Source of the DNA: an uncultured Candidatus Saccharibacteria bacterium
GTDB taxonomy: Bacteria > Patescibacteriota > Minisyncoccia > Phycocordibacterales > PALSA-1337
Direction: 5' to 3'
Assembly (NCBI GenBank): GCA_964600255.1
Contig: CAZRIX010000001.1
Location: 118,542 to 182,541, forward strand
Length of the DNA stretch: 64,000 nt
Shown in pieces: positions 36,972-62,490 of the stretch (positions are counted from its first letter, which is position 1; every line of letters starts with the position of its first letter). Below the pieces are notes generated by a model, which saw nothing but the letters and a program-made list of their open reading frames with translations, was not told the DNA's origin and ran no database searches. A program made the translations under genes and the position numbers.

Positions 36972-38927
36972 TTACTCTACCCTAAGAACATCTCTGAGTA
37001 CATCTTCTGGTACCTCATTTTTTGTGTCACTTTTTATCTGTGTTTTTTCAGAATTCTTCAGATTTTCTATTGGTTTTGATACTACCTTTGGTTTGTCTGT
37101 GCTCATATTTGCATCACCATTTTTTGTTAATCCTGGGTTGGCAGCGAGGATTGCTGACAATGCACTCTTTAATTCATTTACGCGAGCTGGTGAAGCGTCC
37201 TTATGATTGTTATTTTTTGGAGTATTTGTAAGTGAGCTTAGCGATACGGACTTAAGCTTAGGTAGGTTCACATTATGATGAACAAAAGGTCTTTGATTAT
37301 TATTATGTCCATGATGATTCTTATCACCGTGATGATTTACGTGCTGTCCCACATGATGACCTGTGCCATGACTGTGATGTCCATTGTCGGCTACTTTAGG
37401 TGCCGTGGCTGTGTTTGTATGCATCTGAACAGGCTCTACGTGTATTGTAGGTTGTGGATTTGATATCGTGGGCTTAGCAGTATTTACAACGGTTGGCGCA
37501 GGTGTGACTGGTTTTGGTTCAGCCGCTTTGACATCAGTTGTCTTTGATTCTTTTGGCTTATCTTCTACCTTCACTGTTGCAGACTTAGGTGGTGCTTTGA
37601 CTGGTATTATAGGGGCCATCCAGTCATCGATAGCTTTCTCAACCTCAGCTCTCCTGTTTGAGAATTGTATTCTAGACTGTTCAATAACCTTCTCTTTACT
37701 TGAACTCTCTGGTTTTTCGATTGGTGGCAAGGTGGTAGCAGAAAAAGGTGCCGAGCTGATACCATCGATCATTAATTTTAAATATATTTGGAAAATACCC
37801 AAGTTCACAATATCTTCTGCAGTAAACTGCGGAGCAAATTCCTTCTCTAGAACTTCAGCATCAAAAGCTCCTACTCGAAAGACAATCATAGTACCAACGT
37901 TACCGAATACAGCAGCTCTAACCTCCTCTTCCATTTGCTCAATATACTGATGAGCCATTGTAAGGTTCAACTTGTACTTTCTTGCCTCAGATAGAATATC
38001 TGCAAAACTTTCATTGGCGAAAGATTGGAACTCGTCTACGAATAGATAGAAGTTTGGTAGAGTCTTGAGTACTCTATCTGGAACATCCGCACGTGAAAGT
38101 GCTGCTAGATAGATCTTTGTAATCAACATTCCCCCCAGAAGATTGGCATTTGATTCTCCTATTCTTCCCTTTGATAGGTTTATGATAAATACCTTACCAC
38201 TATCCATCATCTTTCTTATGTCAAAAGATGATTTTGGCTGACCGATCATATTACGTATCAGTGCATTTGCAGTAAACTGTCCGATCTTGTTCTGGATCGC
38301 TGGCACGGCTTCAGCGGCCATTCTTTCTGTATAGTTTGCAAACTCTTGTACCCAAAAAGCTTTTACTGATGAATCTGTGACATGAGAGATTACCTGCTTT
38401 CTGAACTCTTTATCAGACAACATTCGGTTTACACCGAGCAATGTAGCATCTGGATATTCTAGTAGTGCCAGAAGAGTGTTTGTAAGGATATATTCCATTC
38501 TTGCTGACCAAGCGTCTTGCCATATCTTTTTGAAGGTACTCATCAGACCTGATACGACTAGGTGTCTTTTATCAGCATCAACATTTTCCAAAACATTAAA
38601 TGAGATCGGATTGTCTATATCGAACGGAGCAAAATACACTACATCCTTTTGTCTATGTTCCGGTACATACTCTAATAGGAGCTCAGCTGTTTTGCCGTGA
38701 GGATCGATGAAAGCCATACCCTCACCATTCTTTATATCCTGCACAGCCATGTTCTCAAGTAAGGTAGACTTACCCATACCTGTCTTTCCTATCACGTAGA
38801 CATGCTTTGTACGATCCTTTGCTTTAATACCAAAGGTTACCCTCTTATTTCTGGCATCAGTTTGTCCAAAATATGTGATCCTTTCTTCATTCATAAATAT
38901 AGAACGTTTATGTATATATTCTAACAC
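36972..38927 (-). CDS. VirD4/TraG/TraD-like (DUF87-type) P-loop ATPase with disordered Pro/Ala/His-rich C-terminal tail
   Basis: Walker A GKTGMGKST and Walker B YLFVDEFQ. TMAHQYIEQM resembles the conserved coupling-protein motif. The last ~200 aa are low-complexity (KPKESK...HHSHGTGHHVGQHVNHHGDKNHHGHNNN). No N-terminal TM segment. Only 4 nt separate it from the downstream GT gene. Confidence 0.65.
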   Translation of the reverse strand: MLEYIHKRSIFMNEERITYFGQTDARNKRVTFGIKAKDRTKHVYVIGKTGMGKSTLLENMAVQDIKNGEGMAFIDPHGKTAELLLEYVPEHRQKDVVYFAPFDIDNPISFNVLENVDADKRHLVVSGLMSTFKKIWQDAWSARMEYILTNTLLALLEYPDATLLGVNRMLSDKEFRKQVISHVTDSSVKAFWVQEFANYTERMAAEAVPAIQNKIGQFTANALIRNMIGQPKSSFDIRKMMDSGKVFIINLSKGRIGESNANLLGGMLITKIYLAALSRADVPDRVLKTLPNFYLFVDEFQSFANESFADILSEARKYKLNLTMAHQYIEQMEEEVRAAVFGNVGTMIVFRVGAFDAEVLEKEFAPQFTAEDIVNLGIFQIYLKLMIDGISSAPFSATTLPPIEKPESSSKEKVIEQSRIQFSNRRAEVEKAIDDWMAPIIPVKAPPKSATVKVEDKPKESKTTDVKAAEPKPVTPAPTVVNTAKPTISNPQPTIHVEPVQMHTNTATAPKVADNGHHSHGTGHHVGQHVNHHGDKNHHGHNNNQRPFVHHNVNLPKLKSVSLSSLTNTPKNNNHKDASPARVNELKSALSAILAANPGLTKNGDANMSTDKPKVVSKPIENLKNSEKTQIKSDTKNEVPEDVLRDVLRVE

Positions 38928-49861: not shown

Positions 49862-52489
49862 CTATTTACTATTAATATAAGACCGGGTAACTGGCCCAAA
49901 ATACCCTACTGCAGGTTTAATTCCATTTGCTTGTTGGAACTTTATCAGTGCCTTCTGTGTCAATGGACCAAAATAGTCAGTCTCCTTTCCAACAGATCCT
50001 GCGCCGACACTCGATATAGTATATCCCTGTGAATTTAGAAACTCTTGAAGCTTCTTTACATCTTTATGAATAGCTCCTTGTTGAAGTGACCGACTGAAAC
50101 TTAATCTTATATTTTGAGCACTTACCTTACTAGTATTTGGATTTACAGATAGACCATACTGGTTTATCAACTGGTACGCTTGAGAATTTTGTCCCATACT
50201 TAGTAGATTATTTACACGACTGATTACACTACCGGAACTGCGCGAACTAGAGTTATTATTCACCATTACTTGTATACCTGAATCTGCATAATTCCCCGCT
50301 CTATCTCGTGCTGTCGCTGTAATAGTATGTACACCATAACTTACTTGATTTGAATCTAAACTAACTGTATATGGACTTGTAAGAATTTCAGAACCGATAT
50401 TAATTCCATCAATCTTGAACTGTACACCAACCACGTCTGATCCACTATCTGTACTTACAGCTGTCAGTGATACCGCACTACCAGATATAACCGAACCACT
50501 CAGAGGTGTAGTTATAGAAACAGTAGGGGCAGTATTGTCCACATAAACCATAATAACTGAAGAGGTTGCAGTGTTTGAGTTACTATCAGTAACTAGTGCG
50601 TATATGCTGTAACTACCATTTGCTACTGTGGTTGTATCCCAAGTATATGTATATGTTTCTGCAGAGGTTGTTGATGTTAAAGGTGATCCGAGAGCTATAT
50701 TGTTTAAGTAAAATTGGACTGAACTAACACTAGCAGGGCTTGTGGCACTCGTAACTGCAATTAAGTTTGTTGACGAAGAAATGTATGCACTGTTGGTTGG
50801 ATTGGTGATTGTAACTGTAGGTGATGAGATGGTTCCGTATACGTATGCACCTACATCCCAATTTGCTCCATAACTATTTTGATCAGCAAGTAGAATACCT
50901 GATGGCCAAGAATTCAACGGTGCTAAAGCATACTTATATGTCGACCCCAAATTGGCTCCGGCATTTACTGCTGGTGAGGAAGATCTAAGTGTGTAATCAC
51001 CGGTACTAGTACTCGTCAATAATGGGTTCGTAAGTAATCCATTTGTGTCAAAACCAAGCGCCTTCCATTGAGAAAAGGTGTGATATGCACCATTGTAGAA
51101 TGGTGACGCTCTAGTAGATCCGAAGTAATGATTGTAGTCTGCGGTCAGTCCCCCTGTCGGTGTATTCATATAAAAGCCTGATCCTTCTGAAATAATCAGA
51201 TTATTCTTCATATCAGCAGTTGCACCTGAGGTGAGGTAAAGAAAATCCTGTGTTCCGGTCGTGTAATACGTATTATTATAAACTTTAATACCTGTGGCTG
51301 TGCTTGCCAATTTTACAGCTGGATTAGTGAACAACGTACCGTTTATTACGTTATTATAAAACTGTGATCCTGCTCCTGCGCCACTACTTGCCGTGTATGC
51401 TCCTGACCAACCTCCAGTGATGTAGTTTCGTCGCGCAATTATAGATGTTCCAGCATCAGCACTTTCAGCGACAGCATATTGTCCAGTATTACTAAACAGA
51501 CGTGTAGGTGCCGCAAAGTTAAACAGTGAGTCTTCGACTATATTTTCATAAGCACCACCATGGGTTTGGACACCAACTGCATTCCCAAATGTATCTAGAA
51601 CGTGCACACGCCTGAAAACATTTCCTGTTGAATAAACACTGTAGAACAAAAATGTTCCACCTGCATTGTTCTTTGCAAAAAGATCTACACCCAGATTGTT
51701 TGATCCATAGAAACTCAAGCTATGGTTGGCATTGTCATAGTAGTTACAATTTTTAACGACGATATTTGAACCATAAATAATCATAGCGGACATATTTGTA
51801 TAAGACCTTACAACATCCATATCTTGAAAAACCAACCAACTTGAAGATCGATCGAACTTATCCTTGACGATGTTTGCACGGCTTGATGCCTCGTATGTTA
51901 GTCCGTTAGTAAGTGGGTTTGGATCAGTGCTTGATGAATGGAGGTAGAAAAAGCGATTATTTGAGTCATAATATACTGTCCCTGGAGTTGAAGTTGCTAG
52001 GGCAAGTGAGCTCACAGTTCTGAGTAACACACCATTTTCCCACATGGCAGCACTTGGAGGTTGTGTACCCTCAATAGTGAGAGCAACATTGTACTTATAT
52101 GTATTGTTTGGACCGTCATATACGATGAAATTAGAATTATCAATTATGTCCGAACCGATAAAAACTGGGTTAGCACCTGACCCGTATTTACCGATTGTAA
52201 TTGGATTTCCACTTGTTCCAGAAGAAGGAAATGTCAGAGATTCACGCCATTCTCCGCCAGCCTTAAATAGTACATAGTCTCCTGGACTAAATGTTGAGTT
52301 GTTAACTTTAGAAACCGTTCTCCATGGTGTAGAAACAGACGTAGGGTCAACAGAAGAATCATTTCCAGCTATAGAATCGACATAATATGTTGCAGCATCA
52401 ACAGATGTGGCGCGCATAAAAAACACAAGAAACAACACAAAAACAGATCTATTGATACTTTTTCTAGTCAAACAATTCATTTTTAACAT
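49862..52489 (-). CDS. Secreted right-handed beta-helix protein with Ig-like domains and C-terminal peptidoglycan-binding domain
   Basis: N-terminal signal peptide. A long central region of N/G/S/T/Y-rich short repeats (beta-helix-like, with NxxG/YxN rungs). Repeated ~90-aa T/S/V-rich modules (VTITNPTNSAY..., VSITTPLSGSV...) look like Big/Ig-like domains. The last ~70 aa match PG_binding_1 (LQEFLNSQGYTISSVGAGSVGKETDYFGPLTQKALIKFQ). Confidence 0.7.
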   Translation of the reverse strand: MLKMNCLTRKSINRSVFVLFLVFFMRATSVDAATYYVDSIAGNDSSVDPTSVSTPWRTVSKVNNSTFSPGDYVLFKAGGEWRESLTFPSSGTSGNPITIGKYGSGANPVFIGSDIIDNSNFIVYDGPNNTYKYNVALTIEGTQPPSAAMWENGVLLRTVSSLALATSTPGTVYYDSNNRFFYLHSSSTDPNPLTNGLTYEASSRANIVKDKFDRSSSWLVFQDMDVVRSYTNMSAMIIYGSNIVVKNCNYYDNANHSLSFYGSNNLGVDLFAKNNAGGTFLFYSVYSTGNVFRRVHVLDTFGNAVGVQTHGGAYENIVEDSLFNFAAPTRLFSNTGQYAVAESADAGTSIIARRNYITGGWSGAYTASSGAGAGSQFYNNVINGTLFTNPAVKLASTATGIKVYNNTYYTTGTQDFLYLTSGATADMKNNLIISEGSGFYMNTPTGGLTADYNHYFGSTRASPFYNGAYHTFSQWKALGFDTNGLLTNPLLTSTSTGDYTLRSSSPAVNAGANLGSTYKYALAPLNSWPSGILLADQNSYGANWDVGAYVYGTISSPTVTITNPTNSAYISSSTNLIAVTSATSPASVSSVQFYLNNIALGSPLTSTTSAETYTYTWDTTTVANGSYSIYALVTDSNSNTATSSVIMVYVDNTAPTVSITTPLSGSVISGSAVSLTAVSTDSGSDVVGVQFKIDGINIGSEILTSPYTVSLDSNQVSYGVHTITATARDRAGNYADSGIQVMVNNNSSSRSSGSVISRVNNLLSMGQNSQAYQLINQYGLSVNPNTSKVSAQNIRLSFSRSLQQGAIHKDVKKLQEFLNSQGYTISSVGAGSVGKETDYFGPLTQKALIKFQQANGIKPAVGYFGPVTRSYINSK

Positions 52490-52609
52490 TCTTTATAAAA
52501 CTTAATATTATTCGGAATAATAATAGCACACTTTCTACTTACTCCACACCACATACATTCCAGGATAATATACTCCAAACTTAACCTTGATTGGTTTGTT
52601 AATTGATAA

Positions 52610-53653
52610 TTATTTACTGACCGACACTAATTCCACTTTATAAGTCACTGATTCTCCATCATCAACCAAAATCATTGGTTCCACTCCTGTAAACCAATAT
52701 CCCTCCGAAGTCTTAAAAGTTATTTTCCTTACACCACCAACTTTCATCCCAATAACCCCAAGTGCGTAAGAATCGTAGGACTCAATATTAGTATTCAAAT
52801 TTATTTTGAAATTTTTGAACATATTTGTAAGAGTGGGATTATTTGGCATTGTTGAACTGTCATAGGTTTTACCCTTTATATCTACACCCAGTACATTAAT
52901 AACAGCCTTTTCGTTATACCGCGCCAATTCCCCCGTACCAATCTTCACATCGACAATATTTTCTGACGGGAAGTACTGATAATTCGCAGATCCAGGAACT
53001 GCCTCGAGTGATGGATCCAGATTTACATTATTAGTCATTTCTTGTAAAACCCATTTATCATGTGTATTAGTCCAATCTTTTTTGCAATCATTCCTTCTAA
53101 CAAGATAAATATATGCATCACACTCATCAAGTGAATCAAACATGGCATTATTTTTATAAATAATTTTACCTTTTACAGATAGGTCATGATAATTCATGTA
53201 TATAACAGGACAAAGAATAAAGAAAAGTAAAGCTGCAACTACCGTTGAAACAGTTAATTTATCCGTCAGTGGCTTAGTGATATTAAACACAATCAGAGCA
53301 AAAATAAAAAGTATCAGTATACATACAAGTGTTGGAAAAAACGCCAAACCCCAAGGAACAAAGTATGCTGGAATAAAACAAGCCACAATATCAACAACAA
53401 TTAAAATTCCAGCAACTTTAAAAACTTGTTTATTAAATGAACTACTTAAACCCATCCATATTGAAATAATTACACTAGCGATAAAGTAAAATACATATGT
53501 TGCAAAATCGACATCAAAAAACTCAATAGCATGACCATCACTAGTATGAGAACGATAGTGGAAATAGAAGAAAGACACTAAAGAGTATATAAGTAGAAGT
53601 GCACACCCTCTTAAAATTGATAAAGGATTTGTGAATATTTTGTTATTTTCCAT
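52610..53653 (-). CDS. Hypothetical membrane protein with possible C-terminal FKBP-like domain
   Basis: ~5 TM segments then a soluble domain. KGKTYDSS and GMKVGGVRKITF...YKVELVSV weakly resemble FKBP PPIase motifs. First of three repeat-preceded genes next to the tRNA. Confidence 0.4.
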   Translation of the reverse strand: MENNKIFTNPLSILRGCALLLIYSLVSFFYFHYRSHTSDGHAIEFFDVDFATYVFYFIASVIISIWMGLSSSFNKQVFKVAGILIVVDIVACFIPAYFVPWGLAFFPTLVCILILFIFALIVFNITKPLTDKLTVSTVVAALLFFILCPVIYMNYHDLSVKGKIIYKNNAMFDSLDECDAYIYLVRRNDCKKDWTNTHDKWVLQEMTNNVNLDPSLEAVPGSANYQYFPSENIVDVKIGTGELARYNEKAVINVLGVDIKGKTYDSSTMPNNPTLTNMFKNFKINLNTNIESYDSYALGVIGMKVGGVRKITFKTSEGYWFTGVEPMILVDDGESVTYKVELVSVSK

Positions 53654-53748
53654 GGTACTGATTATATCCCACCATTATATTCCTGAATAGCCTGGTGTTT
53701 GTATGCATTTAACAAGAATAAACAACTAAATTAATAAAAGAAATTAAC

Positions 53749-53792
53749 TGGCGGAAAGAGCGCACTTAAGCGACTTTGCTAAGTCGAGATTC
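53749..53792 (-). repeat. R1: tRNA 3'-end-derived direct repeat (minus strand GAATCTCGACTTAGCAAAGTCGCTTAAGTGCGCTCTTTCCGCCA)
   Basis: Near-identical to R3 at 55157-55200. The terminal GCTCTTTCCGCCA equals the acceptor 3' strand plus CCA of the tRNA at 55336-55425. Confidence 0.7.
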
Positions 53793-53845
53793 TATGTTTA
53801 CATATAAGAACGAGATGTGTAGTTTGGAGTAAACCAAAGACTATA

Positions 53846-54526
53846 TCAAATATTTCTGGTAGAGAAATACCTTTTAACTTTTCTAATACCCACGATTAGA
53901 CTGATGGAGAATACAATAAAGATTGTAAGGAAACTTTCATTGTCAGATGAATTGTCAATATCAAACACGAGAGGAACGATAAGTGCCAATCCCCCTACAA
54001 ATAGAGTAGCCCAGAATCTAACTCTCAAAGAAGAGAGGAAGACTTTCATAGGATGACCTCCCTCTATAACTTGAGCTACCTCATAACTTGATCTAAAAGC
54101 TGGAAACCAGGTAGTCCATACACGGTCACTTACGTGATAATCTTCGGAATGCTGGAGCATTACAATTTTACTTCGATATATTTTTGCTAAGTATATATTC
54201 ACAATACCTGAAAGACTCCAACCAATAAAGATTAGAAATAACGTCGATAAAAATACAGCGTAGCCACCTGTCCCAGATATAATTGCAATAATCATTACCA
54301 AACTTGCTCCTGGGAAAAAACTTCCTATGAAATAGAGTCCCTCGATAAATACAGAAAGAAAGGCAGCCAAGTAAATATACTTTTCATCAATGTTTGAAAG
54401 AAAATCTACCAATTCCCCCATACCTGGAATCTCTGAGTTGAGAAAAAGTAGTACACCATATACCGCAAGAGCTGCTGCTGAGATAATCCAAATTATTCCT
54501 GCATATAGTTGATTCTTATTCTCCAT
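53846..54526 (-). CDS. Hypothetical polytopic membrane protein (possible VTT/DedA-like)
   Basis: 226 aa, 5-6 TM segments. FIEGLYFIGSFFPG resembles a DedA re-entrant loop motif. Confidence 0.4.
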   Translation of the reverse strand: MENKNQLYAGIIWIISAAALAVYGVLLFLNSEIPGMGELVDFLSNIDEKYIYLAAFLSVFIEGLYFIGSFFPGASLVMIIAIISGTGGYAVFLSTLFLIFIGWSLSGIVNIYLAKIYRSKIVMLQHSEDYHVSDRVWTTWFPAFRSSYEVAQVIEGGHPMKVFLSSLRVRFWATLFVGGLALIVPLVFDIDNSSDNESFLTIFIVFSISLIVGIRKVKRYFSTRNI

Positions 54527-54564
54527 TGCATAATTTTAACCTAAATCTAATAATTAAGACACAT

Positions 54565-54630
54565 TGCTCGACTCAGCATGCTGTCGCGAAAAGAGCACAT
54601 GTTAGTGACTCGTATAATGAATCTCGATTT
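54565..54630 (-). repeat. R2: diverged copy of the tRNA 3'-end-derived repeat plus shared palindromic box (GCTCGACTCAGCATGCTG)
   Basis: Shares the CAGCATGCTGAGTCGAGCA box with R3. The tRNA-like tail is degenerated (GTGCTCTTTTCGCGACA). Confidence 0.55.
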
Positions 54631-54654
54631 AGGTAATAACCACTACTCTATAAC

Positions 54655-55092
54655 TCACAAACTAAATAAGTAAATTGAGGTTGTCAAAATAAAAAGTATC
54701 AGCCATGTGTACACATACAATCTGTGGTACTTTTTTATCTGATTGCAATATTCAGTAACAAGAGAATCAGTACGGGCATTATCATTCACACCAAGAAAAA
54801 GGCTTTTTTCCATTTTAGTCCACGAAAAAGCAGTTAGAGGATTAAATGAAACTACCTTTGAATTAATTCCGTCTTTGATTAGTGCTGGTGACCATATATT
54901 AAACTTGAAACTATTTGGATAAAGTTTATTTACTCTCCTTCTAAATTTTAGCAGATGCAAGTTAAGCTGTATTATACATATTAAACCAAAAATAAAAAGT
55001 AGAGTGTAGATACCACCCCCAACAATAATAGTGATTGAAAACAAATCTAAAGACTGTATAAATGTGAGTATACTAGTAATCATAGTTAACAT
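54655..55092 (-). CDS. Hypothetical small membrane protein
   Basis: 145 aa with two TM segments at the N-terminus and one at the C-terminus. No motifs. Confidence 0.4.
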   Translation of the reverse strand: MLTMITSILTFIQSLDLFSITIIVGGGIYTLLFIFGLICIIQLNLHLLKFRRRVNKLYPNSFKFNIWSPALIKDGINSKVVSFNPLTAFSWTKMEKSLFLGVNDNARTDSLVTEYCNQIKKYHRLYVYTWLILFILTTSIYLFSL

Positions 55093-55156
55093 AATACAAC
55101 AGATAGTAACCTGAGGCTATAGCATCTCATCGAGACATGCTCGACTCAGCATACTG

Positions 55157-55200
55157 TGGCGGAAAGAGCGCACGTAAGCGACTTTGCTAAGTCGAGATTC
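55157..55200 (-). repeat. R3: tRNA 3'-end-derived direct repeat, contiguous with GC-rich element B
   Basis: TGGCGGAAAGAGCG + 23-nt insert + GAGATTCG mirrors the tRNA 3' end TGGCGGAAAGAGCGAGATTCGAACTCGC at 55336. Confidence 0.7.
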
Positions 55201-55300
55201 GGTCATAGGTCTTCGCCTGCTGGCTCAGCCTACGACCCTGCCTCCTTCGCCTTCGCTCAGTCCGGCTTTCTCATCTCGTCTTTCTTTGCAGTCAGACGCT
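55195..55300 (-). ncRNA. GC-rich conserved element B (about 85 nt core), candidate structured RNA or recombination arm. Paralogue of element A at 62251-62347
   Basis: The minus-strand core GAGATGAGAAAGCCGGA...GAGGC.GGGTCG...GAGCCAGCAGGCGA.GAC...TGACCGAATC is conserved between the two loci. It is GC-rich in an AT-rich genome and lies immediately 3' of a tRNA and a short hairpin. Confidence 0.45.
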
Positions 55301-55335
55301 CTGTTCAGAAGCCATTCAGGCTTCTTCACAGATCG

Positions 55336-55425
55336 TGGCGGAAAGAGCGAGATTCGAACTCGCGGTTCCAATTAAGGAACGGCGGTTTAGTAAACCGCTG
55401 GTTTAAACCACTCACCCATCTTTCC
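55336..55425 (-). tRNA. Class II (long variable arm) tRNA, Ser-type identity (G73), anticodon loop UUACUAA = nominal anticodon ACU. CCA encoded
   Basis: Manual fold: acceptor GGAAAGA/TCTTTCC, 3-bp D-stem with GG in the loop, anticodon stem GCGGT/ACCGC, variable stem GTTCC/GGAAC, T-arm GCGAG-TTCGAAT-CTCGC, then G-CCA. Confidence 0.7.
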
Positions 55426-55494
55426 ATAGCTATACTATACGAAAATTGAGGACATTTTACAAATTTTTGATAATTACCATGATATAATTATCAT

Positions 55495-62347: not shown

Positions 62348-62402
62348 ACACTTCCACAATATGCTCGATTCAGTTGACCGAGGTCAACTTCATCGATCAT
62401 TG

Positions 62403-62490
62403 CGGAACCGGAGGGATTCGAACCCTCGAGGCCTTTAAAGGGCCTGCCTCTTTAGCAAAGAGGTATGTTAGACCACTCCACCACGGTTCC
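62403..62490 (-). tRNA. tRNA-Ser (anticodon GCU), class II
   Basis: Manual fold: acceptor GGAACCG/CGGTTCC, anticodon arm CCTCT-TTGCTAA-AGAGG, long variable arm GGCC-CTTTAAA-GGCC, T-arm GAGGG-TTCGAAT-CCCTC, discriminator G. CCA not encoded. Confidence 0.85.

Follow-up and report, generated by a model that had tools for sequence, protein, structure and literature searches.

This analysis concerns a serine transfer RNA (tRNA) gene with the anticodon ACU in a DNA stretch of 64,000 nucleotides (nt) from an uncultured Candidatus Saccharibacteria bacterium (contig CAZRIX010000001.1, positions 118,542 to 182,541), which we call the window and whose numbering is used for all positions within it. According to ARAGORN the window holds two tRNA genes, both on the minus strand and 7 kb apart: tRNA-Ser(act) at 55336–55425, exactly the coordinates given in the first-pass annotation of this DNA, and tRNA-Ser(gct) at 62402–62490, which that annotation had rightly described as a normal tRNA-Ser(GCU), at 62403–62490. 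The latter is the canonical partner isoacceptor for the serine codons AGU and AGC (AGY). The tRNA-Ser(ACU) gene (GGAAAGAUGGGUGAGUGGUUUAAACCAGCGGUUUACUAAACCGCCGUUCCUUAAUUGGAACCGCGAGUUCGAAUCUCGCUCUUUCCGCCA in RNA sense) is of full length and class II, with a long variable arm, a G at position 73 (G73) and an encoded CCA end, and all of its stems are Watson–Crick paired: an acceptor stem of 7 bp (GGAAAGA/UCUUUCC), an anticodon stem of 5 bp (GCGGU/ACCGC), a variable arm with a 5-bp stem (GUUCC-UUAAUU-GGAAC) and a T arm GCGAG-UUCGAAU-CUCGC. Direct reading and ARAGORN, which sets the anticodon at gene position 35, agree on an anticodon at 55389–55391 of the minus strand (AGT on the plus strand), near coordinate 55390 as first proposed, within the 7-nt loop UUACUAA, i.e. 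U32 U33 A34 C35 U36 A37 A38. The Rfam model RF00005 is matched in full (1–71) at 56.4 bits, compared with a gathering score of 29 and with 56.2 bits for tRNA-Ser(GCU), and none of 200 shuffled sequences folded as well as the gene (minimum free energy −33.8 kcal/mol, z = −3.7). The anticodon lies outside the known serine set (NGA or GCU) and yet pairs with the serine codon AGU, thus the Ser isotype assignment stands. The loop of the window's tRNA-Ser(GCU), UUGCUAA, is the same except at position 34, and its anticodon stem is CCUCU/AGAGG.

The surrounding DNA has a G+C content of 34–42% and encodes housekeeping functions (RNase J, enolase, asparagine synthase, many glycosyltransferases, a type IV pilus cluster and uracil-DNA glycosylase), and the FAD-linked oxidase next to the tRNA gene, for which an exact database look-up returned nothing, has its closest homologues in metagenome-assembled genomes named Candidatus Paceibacter, Pacebacteria, Zambryskibacteria and Parcubacteria. 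Hence, the window is chromosomal and belongs to the Patescibacteria (candidate phyla radiation, CPR), of Parcubacteria type. Three independent metagenome contigs (L001 and L002, JGI 3300045517 and Logan ERR5954481; L003, JGI 3300050206) encode an FAD oxidase 87–91% identical to that of the window, and each of them has a base-for-base identical tRNA-Ser(ACU) in the corresponding position upstream of that gene. Base-identical genes were also found in L024 (Taylorbacteria), L052, L124 (Paceibacteria) and L227, giving seven independent assemblies in total, and all seven copies have A34. The G-to-A sequencing or assembly error that was initially considered is ruled out by this identity and by A34 in at least 120 species-level genomes, described below. 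A consensus scan found a sigma-70-like site, TTGTAA-17 nt-TATAGT, on the minus strand at 55434–55462, 8 nt upstream of the 5′ end of the tRNA, and in L001 and L003 both hexamers are invariant and the 17-nt spacer varies. This site is the putative promoter of tRNA-Ser(ACU). Around the more distant FAD-oxidase homologues (70–79% identity, L004–L009) no serine tRNA was found, and synteny is limited to close relatives; DNA pattern scans were therefore used instead.

One genome per species (GTDB r232) was scanned with a pattern describing a class II tRNA with a GAGUGG D loop, a YUACUAA anticodon loop and a GUUCRAAUC T loop. The scan matched at least 120 loci, and ARAGORN confirmed tRNA-Ser(act) in 119 of the 120 listed, so that together with the window and L001–L003 there are 124 such genes in 123 sequences. 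The ACU loop is demanded by the pattern, and its conservation in these matches is thus by construction. The anticodon stem around it covaries: the family arm RCRGU-UUACUAA-ACYGY occurs with the stems ACGGU/ACCGU, GCGGU/ACCGC, ACAGU/ACUGU and GCAGU/ACUGC, and the GCU partners have CCUCU/AGAGG or CCUCC/GGAGG. An RNAalifold consensus of 80 sequences is a cloverleaf with a long variable arm, and double compensatory changes are seen at 17 of its 27 pairs; the variable arm itself covaries (alignment columns 46–63), and the T stem is ordinary, with G-C at 49-65, 51-63 and 53-61. The pairs G1-C72, G2-C71 and A3-U70 are invariant in all 80 sequences, and G73 is present in the window gene and nearly all members. 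In E. coli tRNA-Ser, G73 and these three pairs are the identity elements for seryl-tRNA synthetase (SerRS).

Pairwise comparison separates the two kinds of tRNA. Mean identity is 0.80 among ACU sequences and 0.79 among GCU sequences, compared with 0.66 between them, and for 112 of the 113 distinct ACU sequences the nearest neighbour is another ACU tRNA. Even within one locus the ACU and GCU genes are only 59–80% identical (mean 66% across locus pairs), which, with their different stems, rules out that the ACU gene arose recently from the resident GCU gene through a G-to-A change. The ACU family, as judged from sequence comparison, thus appears to be an old paralogue that is maintained as a functional tRNA under purifying selection, unlike recurrent G-to-A accidents. 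A metagenome scan in which the loop was left open and the same D-loop and anticodon-stem backbone was kept returned 63 UUGCUAA (GCU), 29 CUUGAAA (UGA) and 28 UUACUAA (ACU) loops; since GCU and UGA tRNAs also carry this backbone, the backbone alone was rejected as a definition of the family. The T arms of the GCU matches differ from that of the ACU family, GUGAG/CUCAC, which the UGA matches share, and this hints at a relationship between the ACU family and a UGA-type backbone.

Most of the listed genome loci are Patescibacteria according to their record titles (Paceibacterota/Parcubacteria, Nomura-, Magasanik-, Falkow-, Levyi-, Taylor- and Zambryskibacteria, Minisyncoccia and ‘Patescibacteria group’). 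In 80 of the 124 cases the ACU gene shares its locus, usually of 8 kb, with a tRNA-Ser(gct) gene, and in half of these the two are within about 200 bp. G+C content was checked in 15 loci, one auto-labelled Saccharibacteria and fourteen labelled as other phyla (including Planctomycetes, Verrucomicrobiota, Flavobacteriales, Polynucleobacter, Cyanobacteria and auto-labelled Gammaproteobacteria), and some of them reach 58–60%. Copies outside CPR include L014 and L034 (58–60% G+C, Planctomycetes label), which are nearly identical to each other, L113 (Verrucomicrobiota) and L046, from a Polynucleobacter isolate, in which two acceptor-stem mismatches may indicate a mobile-element or decaying copy. 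The 3.5-kb Levyibacteria contig L048 has seven tRNA genes, two for Ser(ACU), two for Ser(UGA) and one each for Ser(CGA), Ser(GCU) and Arg(GCG), and is a local amplification of serine isoacceptors. Six ACU-bearing Patescibacteria loci (L018, L043, L063, L100, L119 and L121) contain tRNA-Ile(UAU), which suggests that in these lineages AUA is decoded by a UAU anticodon and not by a lysidine-modified CAU tRNA.

The codon usage of the window would give such a tRNA a use. In 58 open reading frames (ORFs) AGT occurs 387 times and AGC 96 times, a ratio of about 4:1, and AGU makes up 27% of all serine codons; the comparison of AGU with AGC proposed at the outset thus favours AGU. The same preference was found in 84% of the ACU-bearing loci, with a median AGT share of 0.68. 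The commonest arginine codon in the window ORFs is AGA (403 occurrences). To read the genetic code, window codons were mapped on alignments with Ung (two homologues), PilT and enolase of solved structure. The alignment partners of AGA are R in 15 cases, K in 4, Q in 3 and S in none (Ung being counted twice, for its two homologues), and AGT aligns mostly with S. The genetic code of the window is standard, and reassignment of AGA to Ser is ruled out, as AGA aligns with Arg and never with Ser.

These data bear directly on the possibility that A34 is deaminated to inosine, so that the tRNA reads both AGU and AGC and risks reading AGA. The natural TadA substrate has U33-A34-C35-G36 in its loop, of which the window tRNA has the first three, and one preprint reports A-to-I conversion in a split-box tRNA, Phe-AAA, of E. 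coli. However, the fourth nucleotide of the window tRNA is U36 and not G36, an ICU anticodon would be costly because AGA is so heavily used and aligned with Arg that reading it as Ser would be harmful, and AGC is already covered by the GCU tRNA. Moreover, Shulgina and Eddy (2021) reported that CPR bacteria appear to lack tRNA-Arg(ACG) and to use GCG instead (PMC8629427), so the first-pass statement that A34 is essentially restricted to tRNA-Arg(ACG) in bacteria does not apply here, and the misreading of AGA through inosine that was also raised there is not borne out. Consistently, ARAGORN found no Arg(acg) gene in the genome or assembly loci L001–L129. The loci L048 (282–355) and L088 (5649–5721) contain tRNA-Arg(gcg), a type normally absent from bacteria, as the only CGN-box Arg tRNA beside ACU genes in the genome loci, in agreement with the published statement on CPR. 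Even in E. coli, which has TadA, an orthogonal tRNA(ACU) read AGU at 9.4% and AGG at 0.36%, with AGC and AGA below detection, and inosine was not detected (Schmitt et al., PMC11066159). Taken together, we consider deamination of A34 very unlikely.

We conclude that tRNA-Ser(ACU) is probably a functional sixth serine isoacceptor, a dedicated Watson–Crick reader of AGU with an unmodified A34, so that of the options raised at first it is the decoding oddity that fits an intact, conserved and covarying gene. The tRNA would be transcribed from its own promoter and charged by SerRS through the long variable arm, G73 and the pairs G1-C72, G2-C71 and A3-U70, independently of the anticodon. On the ribosome, AGU would be read by an A34:U3 Watson–Crick pair, tRNA-Ser(GCU) would cover AGC and, by wobble, also AGU, and tRNA-Arg(UCU/CCU) would cover AGR (AGA and AGG). 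A34 is most likely unmodified, given that CPR are reported without tRNA-Arg(ACG) and TadA and that U36 in place of G36 would make ACU a poor TadA substrate. Because an unmodified ACU discriminates strongly against AGC, AGA and AGG, the arginine codons of the same box would not be misread. The benefit would be additional cognate capacity for AGU, which is four times commoner than AGC in this AT-rich genome, and A34 would be tolerated owing to the lack of an inosine system and the intrinsic specificity of ACU. E. coli is reported to tolerate an engineered Ser-tRNA(ACU) and even to grow better with it (bioRxiv 10.64898/2026.05.15.725136).

Several points weigh against this conclusion. AGU supply alone does not explain why the gene is retained, as Mollicutes and many Firmicutes are AT-rich and AGU-heavy and do without this tRNA. 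A few contigs of high G+C content with a Planctomycetes or Verrucomicrobiota label also carry ACU copies, and these lineages are expected to have TadA. As regards TadA, a scan for the cytidine-deaminase zinc motif in 1.1 Mb of loci gave one cytidine-deaminase-like ORF, and tblastn with E. coli TadA against 1.8 Mb gave one weak match, in a phage-like locus, in samples that are too small to be informative, with about one gene expected per Mb, and that include only 64 kb of this genome. Finally, the prevalence figures depend on the pattern and are lower bounds (at least 120 matches listed).

The same ACU pattern matched at least 120 loci in IMG/VR, and all those listed contain tRNA-Ser(act). These viral sequences form 62 clusters at 88% identity. 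At least five tRNAs were found in 52 of the 120 loci, with up to 27 (L253), as is typical of phage tRNA arrays. Among these 120 listed loci there is only one Ser(gct) gene, thus ACU fills the AGY slot in the arrays. In arrays that serve most codon boxes, such as that of L253, no other AGY reader is present, which argues for a role in translation. When the pattern allowed either purine at position 34, the 120 matches listed comprised 91 G and 29 A, i.e. about 24% ACU, an estimate that depends on pattern and scan order. No GCU relative more than 86% identical to any ACU tRNA was found in the viral sample. In GenBank phages, blastn picked up tRNAs of the Ser(UGA) or Ser(GCU) type, a megablast search started from 34 representative phage ACU tRNAs yielded a single weak match, and no cultured phage carrying tRNA-Ser(ACU) was identified in these searches; the lack of close relatives among deposited phage genomes may explain why surveys of GenBank and GtRNAdb missed the ACU type. 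Phage-like arrays on a 238-kb IMG/VR contig (L274) and a metagenome contig (L142) carry a tRNA-Ser(ACU) 87.5% identical to that of the window, with the same acceptor stem and D arm, and no protein similarity was found between L274 and the CPR loci. In viral loci tRNA-Arg(ACG) accompanies ACU in 2 of 120 cases (L250–L369), compared with 16 of 91 Ser(GCU)-bearing loci (L374–L464), and tRNAs for Phe, His, Cys and Ile(GAU) are likewise scarcer in the ACU-bearing loci; the two groups may differ in the range of their hosts or in the type of array.

Anticodon-loop changes have been proposed as a means by which phage tRNAs escape host tRNases. On this view, the A34 variant might be spared by a toxin or anticodon nuclease directed against tRNA-Ser(GCU), the phage copy sustaining AGY decoding while host tRNAs are being cleaved and the CPR pair serving as insurance, with AGU still being read. 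The ratio of 120 ACU to one GCU gene in the listed ACU-bearing viral loci and the ACU share of about a quarter among the sampled pattern-matching viral AGY serine tRNAs are in line with this idea. So is the near absence of other ANN anticodons from the same arrays (one each of AAA, AAG and AGU), since a general preference for U-ending codons therefore fails to explain the serine case. Against it, no nuclease specific for tRNA-Ser(GCU) was identified in this analysis, near the gene or otherwise, and the CPR loci, which were not systematically examined in this respect, are without tRNA-linked defence genes; moreover, the large excess of AGU over AGC already gives sufficient reason for the tRNA. 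We therefore find escape from a nuclease decidedly unlikely as the primary explanation.

A role outside translation was also considered, in which the charged tRNA supplies serine to cell-wall or natural-product synthesis, for instance, and the anticodon is irrelevant. Dedicated non-ribosomal tRNAs exist in some Gram-positive bacteria, and SerRS does not read the anticodon. However, even divergent members keep one and the same anticodon loop, near-complete phage decoding sets have ACU in the AGY slot, the T stem with its three G-C pairs is ordinary, and family searches in the window found no Fem-like or similar transferase gene nearby. Such a role is accordingly highly improbable.

Downstream of the tRNA gene, three partial copies of its 3′ end form a direct-repeat array on the minus strand (53749–55200). 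Copy 1 (55157–55200), found by repeat search and alignment, consists of the exact last 14 nt of the tRNA (CGCUCUUUCCGCCA, at 55157–55170) and 30 nt of element sequence on the upstream side, and on its other side lies the downstream flank that L001 has immediately after its intact tRNA. Copy 2 (54565–54610, identified likewise) is degenerate, with UGCUCUUUUCGCGA at 54584–54597 and the same flank motif, and copy 3 (53749–53792, found by repeat search and exact match), of 44 nt, is 98% identical to copy 1 and contains the exact 14-nt sequence at 53749–53762. The element sequence shared by the repeats, about 30 nt long (GAAUCUCGACUUAGCAAAGUCGCUUACGUG), contains a 5-bp hairpin. Each partial copy precedes a small ORF without a family match (145, 226 and 347 aa), and these three ORFs, together with one of 875 aa that has Ig-like and peptidoglycan-binding domains and weak endolysin-type PHROG matches, make up a strain-specific segment on the minus strand at 49862–55335. 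In relatives the downstream flank of the tRNA differs in every case, an adh_short gene lying there in L001 and L002 and other ORFs in L003, and the array repeats are absent from L001–L003 and other relatives. Pfam, NCBIfam and PHROGs searches of all four ORFs of the segment revealed no integrase or phage hallmark, and no recombinase was recognised.

The array looks like the footprint of serial, site-specific insertions at the 3′ end of the tRNA, the full-length gene being the presumed target, and in this window tRNA-Ser(ACU) would thus be an integration hot spot. One of the options raised in the first-pass annotation was that the gene is a non-functional tRNA copy within an integrative array; an attachment-site (att)-like array does exist, but the tRNA is its intact target. 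The three partial copies do show that integration occurred here, which is what a remnant, or else a G-to-A error, has in its favour as an explanation of the gene. The 14-nt copies are remnants, however, and tRNA-Ser(ACU) is not: it is of full length with perfect stems, scores like a canonical tRNA-Ser, has a conserved promoter-like site, is identical in seven assemblies and belongs to a covarying family in at least 120 species. A pseudogene or att copy is ruled out on these grounds, and an explanation by remnant or error is hardly credible. The 226-aa ORF (53846–54526) has homologues of 73–76% identity near tRNA-Ser(ACU) in L030 and L124, thus at least one cassette gene recurs in other species beside tRNA-Ser(ACU). 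A 135-nt stretch (55201–55335) that separates the intact gene from copy 1 is visibly richer in G+C than its surroundings and begins, in tRNA sense, with the hairpin GAAGCC-UGAAU-GGCUUC, without an Rfam match. Elsewhere in the window, between the glycosyltransferase cluster and the pilus genes, lies a gene (36972–38894) for a TraG/VirD4-like coupling-protein ATPase of 640 aa (TrwB_AAD_bind, T4SS-DNA_transf).

According to Ehrlich et al. (2021), all split-box ANN anticodons except that for Ile are universally missing (PMC8007984). A 2026 preprint repeats this absence and came across split-box ANN genes only sporadically in GtRNAdb (bioRxiv 10.64898/2026.05.15.725136), and both sources treat it as evidence of strong, ancient purifying selection. 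In the literature searched, tRNA-Ser(ACU) occurs only as uncommented entries, for tRNA arrays of Acidithiobacillus (PMC4758250) and in a table for chlorovirus ATCV-1 (PMC4810235), and no paper describes this tRNA in CPR bacteria; the anticodon is thus already known in passing, and neither its conservation across the patescibacterial clade nor how common it is in phages is described there. With conserved, covarying members in more than 100 Patescibacteria species and with about a quarter of the sampled, pattern-matching phage AGY serine tRNAs, the tRNA-Ser(ACU) family contradicts the rule of universal absence on a large scale in nature, offers a natural system for studying decoding by an unmodified A34, and would link tolerance of A34 to the loss of TadA and inosine in CPR bacteria. 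Annotation pipelines should not flag such genes as errors or pseudogenes. A natural AGU-specific tRNA could also serve to split the AGU/AGC pair in genetic-code engineering; if our conclusion is true, the natural ACU and GCU pair separates the decoding of AGU from that of AGC and may be a stepping stone for sense-codon reassignment. The most far-reaching claim would be that an ancient, clade-wide sixth serine isoacceptor and major phage component overturns the exclusion of A34 from split boxes and, in its boldest form, was selected because A34 protects AGY decoding from an anticodon nuclease specific for G34, which would make the ACU/GCU pair and the phage copies moves in an arms race over tRNA; we regard this full claim as unlikely.

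Among known tRNAs the closest is tRNA-Ser(GCU), with which the ACU type shares class II architecture, the long arm, G73, the pairs G1-C72, G2-C71 and A3-U70, the loop U32 U33 N34 C35 U36 A37 A38, the codon box and the genomes, often in adjacent positions. The GCU type differs in having G34 and a separate backbone (66% identity, with other anticodon and T stems), and only ACU is expected to read AGU alone. Natural A34 tRNAs other than that for Arg are tRNA-Thr(AGU) of Mycoplasma and Leuconostocaceae and tRNA-Leu(AAG) of Lactobacillales, and in Mycoplasma A34 is unmodified. General statements on natural bacterial A34 tRNAs are found in PMC8007984 and bioRxiv 10.64898/2026.05.15.725136. These Thr and Leu tRNAs likewise encode A34 and are retained across whole AT-rich clades; however, they belong to four-fold boxes, where misreading is harmless, and replace the GNN tRNA, whereas tRNA-Ser(ACU) works in a split Ser/Arg box and coexists with its GNN counterpart. 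With tRNA-Arg(ACG), the substrate of TadA, it has the context U33-A34-C35 and A37-A38 in common but U36 in place of G36, and its lineage is reported to lack that system; ACU was not deaminated in E. coli either. The Acidithiobacillus and ATCV-1 entries have the same anticodon and isotype and come from mobile arrays or viruses, as do our IMG/VR contigs, but they are isolated annotations. Engineered tRNAs with the same anticodon, E. coli Ser-tRNA(ACU) and the M. jannaschii orthogonal tRNA(ACU) (PMC11066159), are processed, active, AGU-specific and non-toxic; they are laboratory point mutants, whereas the ACU tRNAs of Patescibacteria appear to form a natural, old and independently evolving family.

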